Shown: positions 8,555 to 17,178 of the stretch, in pieces
Layout of the letters: every line of letters starts with the position of its first letter
Position numbering within the stretch: position 1 is the first letter of the stretch
Assembly: GCA_964255285.1 (NCBI GenBank)
Contig: CAXUUL010000059.1
Coordinates: 1-41,927 of the forward strand
Direction: 5' to 3'
From: Ionaspis alba
Lineage: Eukaryota
DNA: 41,927 nucleotides
Translations under genes and position numbers: made by a program
Notes under the pieces: generated by a model
Told to the model about the DNA's origin: nothing
Database searches by the model: none
What the model saw: the letters and a program-made list of their open reading frames with translations, nothing else

Positions 8555-11070
8555 ATGTCAGTCTCTCCGCAGCTGACTCCCGCTGGGAGCAGCACCTATA
8601 ACTCGCCTACCATGTATGTCGGAGATGGAACGTGGGACACGAGCCGGAACACTTTCCTGCTGCCAAATCTCGTGGGTTTGAATTTTGACACAATGCGTTA
8701 CAACGGTACGTCAAGCCCTCAGATGCAGTGACTGTACATATCACTGAGGACCCGTAGGCATGGGCAACCGATTTGCCGAGCTCCCAGGATACTTCAATCT
8801 TATTCAAGCTCATGGCATCATCGCCGCTATCACATTCATACTCCTCGTCCCCTCTTCCATCATGGTACTTCAATTTTACAAACGGAGCCGTACGAGAGCG
8901 ATACGATGGCATATATGGTTACAGATACTGACCGTCCTGTTGGTGACTGTTGTCTTCGTACTCGGGTTTTTTGCTGTTGGGCCACAGAGGAGTTTGTCAA
9001 ATCCACATCATGGCATCGGAGTTGCAATCTATGTTTTGATCCTGACACAATTTGTTTGGGGATGGTTTGTGCATAGTAGGAATAAGAGGAAACTCTTGCC
9101 ATATCTTCCTCTGAAAGCTATGGTCTGTCATTTCTACCTCGTATGTCTCGACCAATTGTTGACGTTCTTACCAGTTTCATAAATGGTTCGGCAATGCTAT
9201 TGCTCTTCTAGGGCTAGCACAGATACCACTAGGTTTGACACTTTACGGATCTCCGCAATGGCTCTTCATTCTATACACATTAGCTGTCTTCGCACTTCTG
9301 GTAATTTACTTTGTCTTATCATATCGGCACGACAAGAATCGTGGGAGAGATTGGGGAAGCGATTACAGTTATGCATCCAATTCTGGTGGTAGCATTCATG
9401 ACGGAAGAGAACACAGTCGTTTGGGGCGATTGGCGAAAGCCGGTGCGGTTGGAGTTGGTTTAGCTGCATTGATGTCTCGATTCCGAAGCCGATCGCGACG
9501 TCGCGGCGACCCAGAGGTTGTTGGATCTCGAAGGCATTCTGGTTCATACGAGGAAGAGGAGAAATACACACAATACGGCAAAGATCCGGGAAGGGAGGGA
9601 GGATTCAGACAGAAGCTTCTTGGCATTGGTGCCCTGGCTGGTGCTGCTTATTGGATCACGAGGATGCTTGGCAGGAAAGACCACGACGATGACAGTGGAG
9701 CCACCGAGAGCAGTGAAGATAGTCTCTCCAGAATTGAGGCTGGTAGACCGTTGCCCGCGGGACAGGTTCTGCCAAGCAGTCAGCACCCTTTGAACCAGAC
9801 ACAAGCCCAACCACTCAATCCAGCCTTGAATCACCGAAGAAGTACCAGCTCAATATCCTACGACAGTTACATGAGTGGAAGTCCTTCTCGACAACGACGG
9901 GGTCATGGACTCCGAAATGCCGTTGCAGGGATCGGTGCCTTCGGAGTGGCTCGAAATCTCTTCAAGAAACGCCGTGAGAGAAAAGAGCAGCGTAGAATAG
10001 ATACTCTCCGGGAGCAAGAGATCGAGGATGAGCGTATAGCCCGTGCCAATAGCCAGCGCTACACTGGTGATGGTGCTCCTCGTCGCCAGGCCCGACGCGG
10101 TTCTCTAAGCACGAGTACCGACTATTCTGAAGATCGAAATCGTCACAATCCCCTCACAGCACCTCCTTTACCAGGTGGTGGCGCTCTCCCCGCCGGTGCA
10201 GTCGTCACAGACCAGATCCGGCACAACATCCCGCCCACAGCCAGCAATCCCGTGATCAGCGGCGCTCTACCCGTGCCACCACCACCTCACGATCCTCAAG
10301 GCGTTCTCCACAATGAATCTTCTGGCTCTGAAATATACACTACCGCCTCCGGCCGTCCACATCACAGACACCACGCCGGGCGCGACGCTGCCACGGCTGG
10401 CCTTGCCGGTACCGCAGCTGGCCTGGCAGCAGGTGAAGCCATCTCGAAACACCGCTCTCGCTCTCGTTCTCGCCGCCATAGCGATAGCCCCGCGGAAGGA
10501 TCCTTGGCTTCGCCTCCTGTCAGCGTAAAGGTGAAAATGCATTCCGATGGCCGCCATGTCACCCTGCGTCGGCTCCCAGAGCAAGAAGCTGCCGCCGAGC
10601 GTGCTGCTCGACGCGCTTCTCGTGACCGCAACGGACGTCGCCGCCGAGCTGGTAGCGTCAGTTCTTTGTCTGGTACGGATGCTGGAGTCGGAGGCGAGCG
10701 ATGGCGCCGCACCGAAGCTCTTGAGCGTCAGCAACAGGAAGAGCTTGAGCGCCAACGCATTCAAGCTGCACAAGCCCAGATTGCCCAGGACAAGCTCGGA
10801 GTGCCTAATCCGCTCCCGCCACCCCCTCCAATACCCCCTGGAGGATTTGCCAGTAGCGGCGTTAGTGGGATGAGTGGTGGACCGGCTGGCGGGAGTGGGA
10901 TCTTGAGACCGGGGACTGGAGGGAGTGTTGGTAGCCCTGGAACTTATGATGGGACAGGGACGGAGGCTAGTGCTGATTATGCTAATAATCGGAGGAGAAG
11001 AAGAGCGGAAAGGGCACAAGCCAAATTGGCCAGAGAGGGTAGAGCTGGGGGTGGGGTAGAGTTCACATAA
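8555..11070 (+). CDS. Cytochrome b561-domain membrane protein with long disordered C-terminal tail, ~803 aa
   Basis: Exons 8555-8705, 8758-9122, 9175-11070; introns GTACGT...TAG and GTCTGT...CAG; 2412 nt in frame. Putative heme-ligand histidines in AHG, RWH, PHH and FHKWFG within TM helices. Confidence 0.85.
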
Positions 11071-12202: not shown

Positions 12203-12808
12203 GGTGGTAGAGGGACAGATGGAAGTTAGGGCTTGATGCTGGAGAAGATGCTTGAGCTCTATGGTGAGACACCTGCACTACACATGGAAGAAGATTGAAG
12301 TATAACACCGCGCCTATATAATCCGGAGGAATCGACTTCATGGGCATAGTCTGAGATAGTACAAAGAACCTTTGAAGCAATTCTAGAGTAGGAGATGGAC
12401 TGGATGTCTCGGGTACTGCAACGGGAAAGCTGATGAAATGGTAAGAGCAAACCAAGGGAAAGAAACATGGTAACAATGAATACGGCGATAAGAAAAATGT
12501 CCGCTCATCTTGCAAGAGCGGTAGAACCAGAATTAGCCACCGACTCCAGGAAAAGGAAGTGTTCAACTTGTGGTTGAGAGCAAAGTGGATTAATATCTGG
12601 AGCAGGAGCAGGTATGATCACAAGTCCCACGTGTTCTCAAACAAGTATTTCATTGATCCGTCTGCGATACGAAGTACAGCTAGGACGAAAGGAACGACAG
12701 ACGGGACAGAGGCTGTCTTTACCCGAAACCCTGGCGCTAACCCTTTTTAGCTCAACAATATCTCCAGGTATCTTCCCTCTAACATGCCATTACTTCACTC
12801 CAGCCTCA

Positions 12809-14030
12809 ATGCTTCCTCAGTACGCTCACCACCGACATGCTTTTCAAGTGTTTTCAAGACTGACAATTACTGCTCCTCGTCGTCGCGCTGCCCTCAGACC
12901 AATCTCCACTCGACCCGAAGAACAACCACTTCCCAATTCCTCGCGCTGGCTTCCCGACATCAAGGCTAGGCTGGGGAAATGTATTACGTTTGGTTTGAAA
13001 GATGACCAGATTGGGGAGGCCGGAAGAATAGCAAGGATACTGGGAGAGGAGTGGAAAGGTCTGGTAGTAGGCCACGAGGGTTTTGTCCTCAGGGACGGTT
13101 TGGAAGCCGCTGTGAGGTGGGGAGAGATGGTGAGCCGGCACAGGCCAATGAACGGCACAATTGAAGGCGGTCTGAAATAATTATTGAAGTTGGATTGAGT
13201 CTCAAAGACGAGTAAAGAATGAAGTATGGCTGCTAACTTACTGGCCGTGAATAATAGGATATCATGGTTGGTCCCGATCTGCTACGGATCTGTTACGGAA
13301 CCGCCATATGATATTGACAGATCTAACGTATATCAGGGTACTTTCTCCTTTCCGCTTCTCAAGTGATTCGGTGTCACTGTCCACGTTGACCAACCTTTGT
13401 CTCGGTAGGCCATGTTAACAACGTCTCGTACCTCCGCTACGCCGAGTCCTCGCGAATTCACTATCTTCGGGCTTTGTCACGGCATGTCCCTCGAGAACAC
13501 AGGAAGGACTGGGAAGATATAAGAACACCTCAAGGCCTGGGACTTATTCTCAAAACCGCGAATCTAGATTTCAAATTCGTACGTTAATGATCTATGTCCT
13601 GCAACCAAGCCGGCTACCCTGCAGCCTACTCTGGAAGCATTGATCAACTCAATCCAAGTGTTATGTTTACCAAGAGTAGCCACTCAAATATCCCGATACA
13701 ACGACAACCTATCACCGCCTCGATCTGTCATCCGACTCATCCTCTACACCAGAGCTACTCCCCCTCCTCTCAGTCACACTCTCTCATACCTATAACCGTC
13801 CCGCCTTTCGCATCTCAGAACAGATCCTCCTCTATGACTACCGCCTCAACCGCAAAGCAGCTCTGACTCCTGTAATTCTTGACGTGCTGCGCAAAGCGGT
13901 TGCAGAGGAGGACGCAACCCGGACTTTCTGGACTTCTATGAGGAGGGGGGTTGAGGATATGCTTGAAGGACTGGAGATCAGCAGCTGGAAGAGGGAAGGG
14001 GCGGTGGAAGATATGGGTAATAAGAGGTAA
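12809..14030 (+). CDS. Mitochondrial hot-dog-fold (4HBT-like) acyl-CoA thioesterase family protein, ~283 aa
   Basis: Exons 12809-13129, 13258-13266, 13337, 13409-13578, 13680-14030 (852 nt in frame). Arg-rich presequence-like N-terminus, KARLGKCITFG, WGEMDIMGHVNNVSYLRYAESSR, FKFPLKYPD and C-terminal WKREGAVEDMG. Confidence 0.85.
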
Positions 14031-14272
14031 TGTCGAATATAGTGCGTGGGCTGAAATGAGACTTTTGACCGGCTACAAATTCTAGGAGTGAGAAATCATA
14101 CCACTCCAGCTTGGCATATGTGAACACGAATGTCTCGAGTAGCTGAGGAGCTCATTCAAAGACTTGCAAAGACTGTGTATACTTTCTGCTTTTGGAATAG
14201 AAGGATTCCATGCAAACTTCCAGTCACTCATGCCCAGTTCCACACCACCACCTCTCCATGTCATGCACGCCA

Positions 14273-17178
14273 TCAACCAACCAACGGACTCCCGCCGCCT
14301 CCTTTCCTCAGCCCAGGACTTCCGCCGCCGCTACTGCTACTTCCTTCCCTTACATTTCCAACCATGCTCCGCACCGGCATACCTGACACGTTTGTCGTAC
14401 CGTCCTGGTCCCGACATTCGGCGTAAATGCTATGCCCGCTGAGTATACTCGCCGACCGCGCCCTGCCGCTATCGTGTCTCAAACTAGCCACATGACCATT
14501 CGTTGCACCTTGAACTAGGCTCTCTGGGCTCCCATACGGCGGGAATCGAAAGGTAGCCGTGTTAGTCGACGTCGGTATGGTACCAGGGAGGTCTCCTTCG
14601 GGTGTAATCGGTCGCGAGTTTGTGATTGGTGAGTGACTTGCCATGAGGCTTTGCTGTTCGAAGCTCGCTTCGAGCGCTTGGTTCTGGCTCCAGGCATTAG
14701 AAGATCGAGCGCGAAACTCGGAGAAGCTCCGGCCTAGGCTGGCGATTTGCTCTTCGTAGTGGGCAGCGATCTGAGTCCTTTCGGCAATTTTGGCAGTGTG
14801 CAGTGAGTTCTGACGTTCTTTCTCCGTCGTGTCATGATCGGTCGAGGATTGGAGGCGGCTGTACTGATCAGAAAGCTTGGTAATCCTGTGCTGCAATCTT
14901 TCTCGTTTCTGCGACATTGTCAGAGCTTCGGTCTGTAAGTTGGTATCGTCGCGGTGGTTCGCCTCTTTGGTTCGGAAGAGGGCCTGGCGAGAGGAGGACT
15001 GGTCGTTACGATCATAATCAAAGTCAGATTTTGCTTGACGCCACTCCACAGAATCATCCTCCGGGAGTTTATCGTATGCTTCGAGTTCGGAGGAGATATT
15101 CGTCATAGCATCGTCCGCTTGGCGTATGTGTTGCGTCTGTTGTGTTTGTCTGGATTGGAGGCCGCGATCGTTCGAACCCAATTTAGCCATCCGATCATTT
15201 ATGAGATCAAGATCCTTCCTAATGGTCGCCAGAGAGGCCTTCGCATCCTTACGGATCCGTCGCTGCAGGGCGGAACCATCATTTATGCTAGCTTCAAGAG
15301 CAGAGATGGAAGTCTTCAATGTCGTGCTTGGTGATGTTGGTGACGAGGGACGAATTGTTTGTGGTGGGGTAGCGAGGGCTTGAGAGGCTAGTATGATTCG
15401 TCAATAGAATTATATGGGGAGAACTAGTTGTCTGACATACCTTGATCATTGCTTGGTGAGGATGAGGTGACTATATTCTCTGAATATATCACCACGTCGT
15501 CCTCACAGCGCACGAAAGCAACCTGGTAAGTGGATGCAGGGGAGAGACCATAGACTTCGCCACTCCAGCGCTGACCGACCTGGTCATCCTCATTCTCCTC
15601 TCGAACAGCTTGGATCTTGACAGAAGCCCACTCGGCTCCGTTGACGCGGACATAAATGGGACTTGAACGATCGATGCCAGTATCATCAATCCAATCCGAC
15701 CCATTAGTATCTACATGCTCAGACGTAGTTCTAGTCAAGAAGTAGCTGGTATCGAAGAAAAAGTCATATTGCCGTACGAGTGTGACCCAAGCTCGACCTT
15801 CTTCTAGAACAAATGGGGCACTTCCAAGATTCTCAGCGTCGGTCGCGTTTGAACCTAGAGCATCGGTGGTAGCTTGTGATTGTTCATATTCCCGCATGAC
15901 TGTGGCCTTGGTGGCTGCGAATGCTGCCCATAAAGGCTGCTGACTTCTCACAAGATTACCCTGTTTTCTTTTCCTTTTGCCACTGGAAATCTTGTCTCGC
16001 CCGTCCCGGAGGCTCTGCAGAGAAGATTTACTTCTCAACTCGATGGGTGTGTTGAGGGGAAGAACGGGTTCTGCTAATCCCGACAACTCACCACCTGTCT
16101 GAGAGGCAACAACGGCCTCGGGGTCCAATACTTTACCAGATGGAACAGGCTTCCCGCTCTCATTATAGCTTTTGACCCAGCGCCTAATCAATCGTGCCAC
16201 TCCTTGAGCGACAATGTGAAGAGCTATGACTGATCCAACGTTCCTAATCATAGGCTGTCCCGGTGTGATCGAGTCGGCGGGAAAAACTGGAACATCAGCT
16301 GGAGACATCATTAATGGCACCCACTGCGCAATCCAAGTGCGATGGAAGAGACGAAAAATGAAACGACGATGGTGGCGTAGATGCGCTACAGAGACGATGC
16401 CCATAAAGACCAGAGTGTTATCCGAGCCTCCGGGTTGATTGGAATAACCACCGCCAAGCGTGGACGCAACCATAGCTTGGGCCCAATCAAGTATCATCCC
16501 TTGTGTCCATGTTGGTAGTAGCCAGGTAAACATACCCAGAAGGTCAATAATACACATTGTGGTGAACGAGACAGCGAGAGTATTGTTTTGGAAGATGTCG
16601 GTGAGGGTAGGGATGCTTAGGAACGTTCCGGAGGGAGGAATGAAGGTCAGGAGGGCGAAGATGGCATTCGTGAGAGTGAGGAAAGTCGGAGGTAGGGATA
16701 GGAGGAAGATGAGGATGGCGAGGGTGTCGCTGCGAGGACATGACTTGAGTACGGTGAAGGCTAAGTGCATGCCACTGTGCTCATACGCAGATGCTGGTTT
16801 GACGGAGCTGACATCGATCTTCCTATGGTGCTGATCATTCAACTTGTCGGTCGTACTGGAAGCATTCTCCAGTTCCTCCCAATGATTGCTTATGACCTCG
16901 GTCAAATCCTTGTCTCCGTCCGCAAACCGTAGTCCACCATTGGCATGAACCTTGACACTCGAAGAGGTTCCATTGCTCGCGACTTCTGAACCAGGAGCTG
17001 TGGCCTGCAAATTTGAAGGAGCTGGTAGTGGTGGAGTGTTGGCCCTCGACCTCCCGTCGGAAGCCCCATTCAGATGACCATTCGACTTTTGCTTGGTGAT
17101 ACGCTTGCCGGGGGCGACGATACCATTCTCGTGGCGACTATTGTGCTGGTTTGCGTTCCTCTTCGCCGCTCGTGGCAT
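14273..17178 (-). CDS. acrB: Ubiquitination network signaling protein AcrB homolog, ~950 aa
   Basis: Exons 17178-15441 and 15387-14273; intron GTATGT...TAG; 2853 nt in frame. N-terminus RHENGIVAPGKRITKQKSNGHLNG, TM region DTLAILIFLLSLPP, QQPLWAAFAATKATV and a C-terminal coiled coil match A. nidulans AcrB-family features. Confidence 0.85.

Follow-up and report, generated by a model that had tools for sequence, protein, structure and literature searches.

The DNA analysed here, called the window throughout, is a stretch of 41,927 nucleotides from Ionaspis alba (positions 1 to 41,927 of contig CAXUUL010000059.1, assembly GCA_964255285.1). At about 12809-14030 on its plus strand lies a predicted thioesterase gene of five exons, with a coding sequence of 852 nt (283 amino acids plus a stop codon). 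Exon 1 (12809..13129) ends ...TGGGGAGAGATG at position 13129 (V-R-W-G-E-M; TGG GGA GAG ATG) and is followed by intron a (13130-13257, 128 nt; GTGAGC...GCTAAC...ATAG), which lies in phase 0 after WGEM. A 9-nt micro-exon, GATATCATG (13258-13266; D-I-M), supplies the conserved Asp of WGEMDxMGHVNN and is followed by intron b (13267-13336, 70 nt, phase 0; GTTGGT...CTAAC...CAG, branch A13326), a candidate exon of one nucleotide (G13337), which is the first base of the Gly codon GGC in D-I-M-G-H-V-N-N, and intron c (13338-13408, 71 nt, phase 1; GTACTT...TTGAC...TAG, with A13389). The reading frame resumes with GC CAT GTT AAC AAC in an exon (13409..13578) that reads (G)HVNNVSYLRYAESSRIHY...LDFKF and contains the 4HBT_2 domain core. 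Intron 4 (13579..13679, 101 nt; GTACGT...TAG) lies where the homologue P0005 is continuous (DYK/LPIVYPD), and the last exon (13680..14030) is an open reading frame of 116 codons plus stop, all features being on the plus strand.

The predicted spliced product of the gene reads WGEMDIMGHVNN. At 13334-13343 the sequence CAG/G/GTACTT (slashes marking splice sites) places a single base directly between a complete acceptor and a complete donor. The 24-nt stretch encoding WGEMDIMG is interrupted by introns at its positions 12, 21 and 22, and three introns are thus found within ten coding bases (D-I-M and the first base of G). This layout had been put forward in a first-pass annotation of the same DNA, and the coordinates and splice signals that it gave were all confirmed; its proposal that a 9-nt and a 1-nt exon between complete introns would assemble D-I-M-G-H-V-N-N receives strong comparative support from the related sequences considered below. 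The frame shift that it expected from omission of G13337 was also reproduced, and leads to a stop after 37 further codons. The five-exon coding sequence aligns without gaps at the motif to the proteins P0157, P0005, P0023 and P0077. A stretch covering 54% of exon 1 matches the Trapelia coarctata protein P0003 with 65% identity, which places the window in a lichen-type ascomycete, and two proteins, P0004 and P0006, reach 81-82% identity. We assumed the start codon at 12809, the first in-frame ATG; the ATG at 12784 (the window's first) is out of frame with exon 1. The predicted N-terminus, MLPQYAHHRHAFQVFSRLTITAPRRRAALRP..., contains many Arg, Ala and Ser residues and may resemble a mitochondrial presequence.

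The exon that follows G13337 matches the Pfam family PF13279 (4HBT_2, thioesterase-like) on its own with 25.9 bits, and the open reading frame 13390-13587 does so with 29.0 bits, the cut-off being 25.5 bits. As judged from its sequence, the gene product is a predicted 4HBT_2 hot-dog thioesterase, and one JGI homologue carries the source name acyl-CoA thioesterase FadM. The Asp of the D-x-x-G-H-V-N-N motif is regarded as catalytic in enzymes of the 4HBT class.

Open reading frames on the minus strand gave no Pfam match, an Rfam search of 12500-14300 returned zero matches, and a tRNA search of the window found none. The adjoining minus-strand ORF at 14273-15400 encodes 375 amino acids, rich in Ser and Gln, and its sole hit, to NACHT N-terminal helical domain 7, falls below the threshold (18.3 bits, cut-off 27). 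The kilobase 10001-11000 has a G+C fraction of 0.61, compared to 0.45-0.53 elsewhere in the window. Two runs of DNA contigs from the same organism were compared with the window: run X1 covers the whole stretch with zero differing letters at a word depth of 138, and run X2 contains four short identical pieces; no joints were found in either. Run X1 is probably the window's own source and hence gives no independent support.

In order to list the possible ways of reading the motif, all GT..AG combinations of up to three introns, each of at least 40 nt, were enumerated over the interval bounded by the W codon at 13118 and the H codon at 13411. There are two solutions of 24 nt in the window, one of which has a stop codon while the other encodes WGEMDIMG; the sole 24-nt solution with Asp at position 5 is that combining the introns 13130-13257, 13267-13336 and 13338-13408. 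Donor scores come from a matrix derived from 110 donors in related loci, the lowest-scoring of which reaches 2.0 bits. On this scale the donor of intron b (GTTGGT) reaches 3.6 bits, in the 12th percentile of the 110, and that of intron c (GTACTT) 4.4 bits, in the 26th percentile; both are on the weak side.

The spacing of the motif in the protein family was examined with a search of the homologue library, in which the ORF 13390-13587 found 197 proteins with E values up to 0.001; the best 150 of these, plus P0005, were surveyed (151 proteins). Both WG[EDQ][MQ] and H-x-N-N are present in 27 of the 151, and in 22 of these 27 the distance from W to H is 8 residues, typically WGEMDSMGHVNN. In the remaining five it is off by -2 or by +6 to +12 residues, and these look like the products of retained or mis-set introns, to judge by their sequences. 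A further 99 of the 151 surveyed homologues are fragments that start in non-homologous sequence right before G-HVNN, which suggests that an intron is located there in many fungi. The solved bacterial thioesterases 3qy3 (WGDMDSYGHVNN) and 2fuj (WRDMDSMGHVNN) retain W(G/R)DMDS(Y/M)GHVNN.

These observations bear on a simpler reading of the window, in which one long intron runs from the weak donor GTCCCG (13271) to the acceptor at 13408, G13337 is unused and the protein reads D-I-M-V-G-H-V-N-N. Such a gene would be in frame with one intron fewer, and this is the only 27-nt solution of the enumeration that retains WGEMDIM. However, GTCCCG scores -2.0 bits, under all 110 donors of the related loci (minimum 2.0), and the extra residue between D and H, which would bring the distance from W to H to 9 residues, occurs in 0 of the 27 two-motif homologues (survey of the best 150 of 197 plus P0005). 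We consider the use of GTCCCG very improbable.

Comparison with related loci was made by scanning metagenome contigs with an alignment (A1) in which 50 homologues of the exon downstream of the one-nucleotide exon are combined. The scan gave 195 confirmed stretches, of which the best 80 were retained; their identity to the window exon 13411-13581 is 53% at most. Nine of the 80, with contigs ending before the WG motif, were set aside, and the enumeration solved all of the 71 evaluable loci. Among these 71 (from the best 80 of 195), 28 have the layout of the window, i.e. intron a, the 9-nt exon, intron b, G and intron c, and 10 have introns b and c around the G, so that the AG/G/GT layout is found in 38. 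Three loci (L025, L044 and L046) carry GG as an exon of two bases, their last acceptor being shifted one base downstream, 21 have intron b only, two have intron a only, one has introns a and b, and six have no intron at the motif, three of the latter being short bacterial-like ORFs. The position of intron a is occupied in 32 of the 71 loci (33 with the window included: 29 + 2 + 1 + 1).

Near-copies were collapsed at 95% nucleotide identity, which left 62 clusters including the window, and the one-base exon is present in 30 of these, namely 29 non-redundant loci and the window itself (from the best 80 of 195). The 30 are between 30% and 98% identical in their flanking exons, with a median of 62%; as the loci are metagenome contigs, the taxonomic breadth of the one-base exon is suggested by this divergence only. 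Intron b is 49-416 nt long in the 30 loci (median 70) and intron c 48-83 nt (median 54). A 9-nt exon of the form GAYNNNATG lies between introns a and b in 22 of the one-base-exon clusters, the window among them, and likewise in L025 and L061. A branch motif CTRAY, searched 8-45 nt from the 3' end of the intron, was found in 19 of the 30 b introns and 24 of the 30 c introns, compared to 15% of shuffled introns.

The pentamer AGGGT is present in all 30 of the non-redundant loci with mismatched splice phases, and in 28 of them its GT is followed by A. Mononucleotide shuffles of the equivalent intervening stretch in the same 30 loci contained a usable AGGGT, i.e. one with both halves of at least 40 nt, in 4.2% of the shuffles per locus on average (range 0.4-26%), so the observed 30 of 30 exceeds chance. 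As a second control, 21 non-redundant loci with a phase-0 intron and without intron c (20 with intron b alone and one with a and b) were inspected, and AGGGT occurs inside the intron in two of them. In 27 of the 30 loci a stop-free reading without a one-base exon can also be constructed, with WGxxD retained in 20 of them; these alternatives vary between loci and rely on weak donors, and none restores the spacing of the family. In particular, no equivalent of the GTCCCG reading is conserved in the other 29 loci, all of which have AG/G/GT. Loci that are intronless at the motif (L020, L030 and L068) and homologous proteins read WG(E/D)MDxMGHVNN. Just before the one-base exon, intron b ends in AAG at 19 of the 30 loci and in CAG in the window (13334-13336). 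AAG is an uncommon acceptor in fungi. From this comparison we regard the one-base exon as very probably genuine and ancient.

A decaying pseudogene or an assembly error, in which the solution for the motif would be fortuitous, was also considered, given that the gene is unreadable without an unusual model. The coding sequence is nevertheless open over 283 codons and aligns to homologues over its full length, the source contig has a word depth of 138 with no variant, and an identical layout is seen in 29 other non-redundant loci. It is hardly conceivable that decay or misassembly accounts for the motif.

Three of the six motif-intronless loci, L078, L079 and L080, are ORFs of about 150-220 amino acids that read WG(D/E)MDA(L/Y)(Q/G/R)HVNN and are separated from the fungal loci by long branches; by their sequences they are probably bacterial homologues. 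The motif-intronless loci L020 and L030, as well as L026, were considered as possible spliced transcripts and rejected, since the downstream intron is still present and the sequences are genomic. L068 is intron-free, and was not accepted as a spliced transcript either, being only 59% identical to the nearest locus with a one-nucleotide exon.

Public gene models show how the junction is handled by annotation software. A search with the Trapelia protein found 13 proteins, including seven named models from NCBI, all of lichen fungi (Trapelia coarctata, five Xylographa species and a Flavoplaca MAG). An intact WGEMDxMGH(V/L)NN is found in none of the seven (P0003, P0156, P0063, P0158, P0159, P0056 and P0161): the models insert 13-17 unrelated residues, skip EMDxMG, skip a whole exon or start beyond the junction. 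Four of the 13 are unnamed ORFs that end by read-through into an intron, and the other two are Logan-derived ORFs that are correct at the motif. That gene finders would mis-model this junction had been anticipated, and the 0 of 7 named lichen-fungus models at NCBI bear it out; as a result of the mis-set introns, automated annotation gives proteins without the motif that holds the Asp. One of the two Logan-derived ORFs, P0157, is free of introns: on a contig of 907 nt it runs through all four intron sites without a break and reads WGEMDIMGHLNN. The Xylographa carneopallida model shares 75% identity with P0157, the sole large difference being 15 extra residues of the model at the junction, and by its sequence P0157 looks like the spliced transcript of a related lichen fungus.

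Taken together, we estimate the probability that G13337 serves as a genuine one-nucleotide exon in constitutive use at roughly 0.87, as far as can be judged from sequence comparison. The following model of splicing is proposed. The gene would be a nuclear gene of a lichen-type ascomycete encoding a 4HBT_2 hot-dog thioesterase, and its three introns at the motif would be ordinary U2-type introns, each having a GT donor, a branch site and an AG acceptor of its own, recognized by intron definition, which suffices because every intron is complete. If intron b were removed first, ATG would be joined to G13337 and an ordinary 5' splice site, ATGG/GTACTT, would be left; if intron c were removed first, G13337 would be joined to GCCAT, and ...CAG/G-GCC would be a normal 3' splice site. 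Either order would yield GAT ATC ATG GGC CAT, with the expected junction GAGATG-GATATCATG-G-GCCATGTT. The AG of intron b occupies positions -3/-2 of the donor of intron c, which makes simultaneous engagement of the two sites unlikely, and removal is most likely stepwise. Transcripts that skip the G would be frameshifted (stop after 37 codons) and are probably degraded. We infer that splicing proceeds as described, sequentially and constitutively.

The donors of intron c merit separate description. GTAC.. and GTAT.. predominate among them, and a G at position +5 is found in 12 of 32, compared to 71 of 78 donors of introns a and b; the 32 donors of intron c are those that follow a 1-nt or 2-nt exon, and were counted over non-redundant loci with kinship ignored. 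This bears on the suggestion of the first-pass annotation that the arrangement might act as an on/off switch, with donor 13267 pairing with acceptor 13408 so that the G is skipped, the message degraded and the enzyme turned off. Skipping would put a premature stop upstream of the last intron, and the efficiency of splicing could be tunable since the c donors are short of G at +5 (12/32 vs. 71/78). On the other hand, many relatives lack introns b and c, so the gene needs no such switch, fungal introns are recognized by intron definition (PMC5587772), which makes skipping uncommon, and for Arabidopsis APC11 the published account of the one-base exon calls it constitutive (PMC4674806). A regulated switch is improbable, and the suggestion is left without support, the arrangement being old and kept like a constitutive feature; constitutive use of G13337 remains the preferred reading.

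The various layouts allow some statements on intron loss. Locus L061, with introns a and b only, is 85% identical in amino acids (flanking exon parts) to L060, which has a, b, G and c, and the two read ...AAAG/GGT CAC and ...GAAG/G/(intron c)/GT CAT, respectively. Locus L052, with intron a only, is 86% identical to L034, which has a, b, G and c, and reads GAT GTA ATG GGT CAC. The sequences of L061 and L052 indicate that precise intron loss leaves exactly one G between ATG and GN. Such precise losses are what copying from a spliced message would be expected to give. At L025:449-450, L044:1937-1938 and L046:539-540 the one-base exon is replaced by AG/GG/GT...AG/N CAT; in these GG-exon loci the last intron lies one base downstream (phase 2), and the protein still reads WG(E/D)MDSMG-H.

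Intron c was found without intron b in 0 of 71 loci, compared to 21 of 71 for intron b alone (from the best 80 of 195). An origin of introns b and c by tandem duplication was looked for and rejected, as their likeness has z = -1.7 in the window and a median of 0.0 over 30 loci, among which only L073 reaches z 4.5; with no sequence likeness between b and c, such an origin is not visible. In a tree of the flanking exons (130 columns, weakly resolved) the architectures are scattered, and the state of the one- or two-nucleotide exon requires at least 11 changes; with its weak support, this tree points neither to a single origin nor to a direction. We offer as a tentative and rather doubtful idea that this codon is an old hot spot for intron positions, that the layouts may be snapshots of an intron sliding by one base via stages with 1-nt and 2-nt exons, and that the systematically weak c donors may enforce a fixed order of removal, similar to recursive splicing, in which intron b goes first.

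For a long time the spliceosome was considered incapable of including an exon of one base and, to our knowledge, only a handful of such exons have been documented. The gene in the window adds to this rare kind a one-base exon that appears to be broadly conserved and that would lie inside a motif with a conserved Asp regarded as catalytic. Its variants, with a 1-nt exon, a 2-nt exon or losses that leave ATG-G-GN, are material for the study of intron gain, intron loss and one-base intron shift. In the literature on one-nucleotide exons, intron shift, stwintrons and micro-exons we found no title on this 4HBT_2 thioesterase among the matches listed, and none of the best-ranked matches treats both stwintrons and a thioesterase, which suggests that the two are not combined in any paper of the collection searched.

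Several known systems resemble the arrangement in part. In recursive splicing, ratchet points of the form AG/GT in long introns of Drosophila and vertebrates leave nothing in the mRNA. As in the window, a 3' splice site abuts a 5' splice site there, and the first step restores a 5' splice site. Ratchet points serve very long introns, whereas the window has introns b and c of about 70 nt and the sequence AG/G/GT, in which one base is retained.

Stwintrons, for which the first-pass annotation had noted a likeness to nested or twin introns, are known from Pezizomycotina, where they are removed by two consecutive U2 reactions and have been linked to a model of 1-nt intron shift (Fekete et al. 2017, PMC5587772). 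In a strict stwintron the internal intron splits a splice signal of the external intron. The window has in common with stwintrons, as they are defined in that publication, intron definition and discordant intron positions one base apart in one conserved peptide, and its two adjacent introns, probably removed in two consecutive reactions, seem to belong to a filamentous ascomycete, a group where stwintrons are known. The internal intron of a stwintron interrupts a splice signal and no base is retained, whereas each intron in the window has an intact donor, branch site and acceptor with one base retained between the two, and the CAG acceptor is followed by G-GT and not by the T that the [D1,2] form requires. 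Under the definition given there (PMC5587772) the arrangement is not a stwintron, as no splice signal is interrupted, and we see next to no likelihood of its being one in the strict sense; the comparison holds as a loose likeness, the interruption that defines stwintrons being absent. The sliding via 1-nt and 2-nt exons suggested above also differs from the stwintron-mediated shift already described.

One-nucleotide exons have been reported from plants and from fungi. In Arabidopsis thaliana, APC11 has a constitutive single-nucleotide exon with two flanking introns that was originally mis-annotated (Guo & Liu 2015, PMC4674806). This is a plant gene that was tested by GFP fusions in Arabidopsis and rice and, in the account given there, comes without a neighbouring micro-exon. 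The long-read annotation of Coprinopsis cinerea reports exons of 1-3 nt, including 13 one-nucleotide exons in 13 genes (PMC12230235); it has in common with the present case, as far as that report describes it, that fungal spliceosomes handle such exons and that their omission breaks gene models, and it differs in concerning a basidiomycete and in being a genome-wide list.

A close counterpart is found in the CYP621A P450 genes of Fusarium, where a one-nucleotide exon, confirmed by SRA reads, is described in 20-24 genes of one genus (Nelson & Syed 2026, PMC12940212). According to that description, the exon is likewise a single G in AGGGT that contributes one base to the codon for a Gly within a conserved motif, and it was likewise inferred from a phase mismatch relative to intronless relatives, is conserved in orthologues and was missed by annotation. 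The CYP621A exon is the middle base of its codon, whereas that of the window would be the first base and comes directly after a 9-nt exon. The former is confirmed by SRA reads within a single genus, whereas the latter, known from comparison of genomic sequences, extends across loci down to 30% identity. Unlike the CYP621A exon as presented in that paper, the type found in the window comes with variants that have a 2-nt exon or have lost introns.
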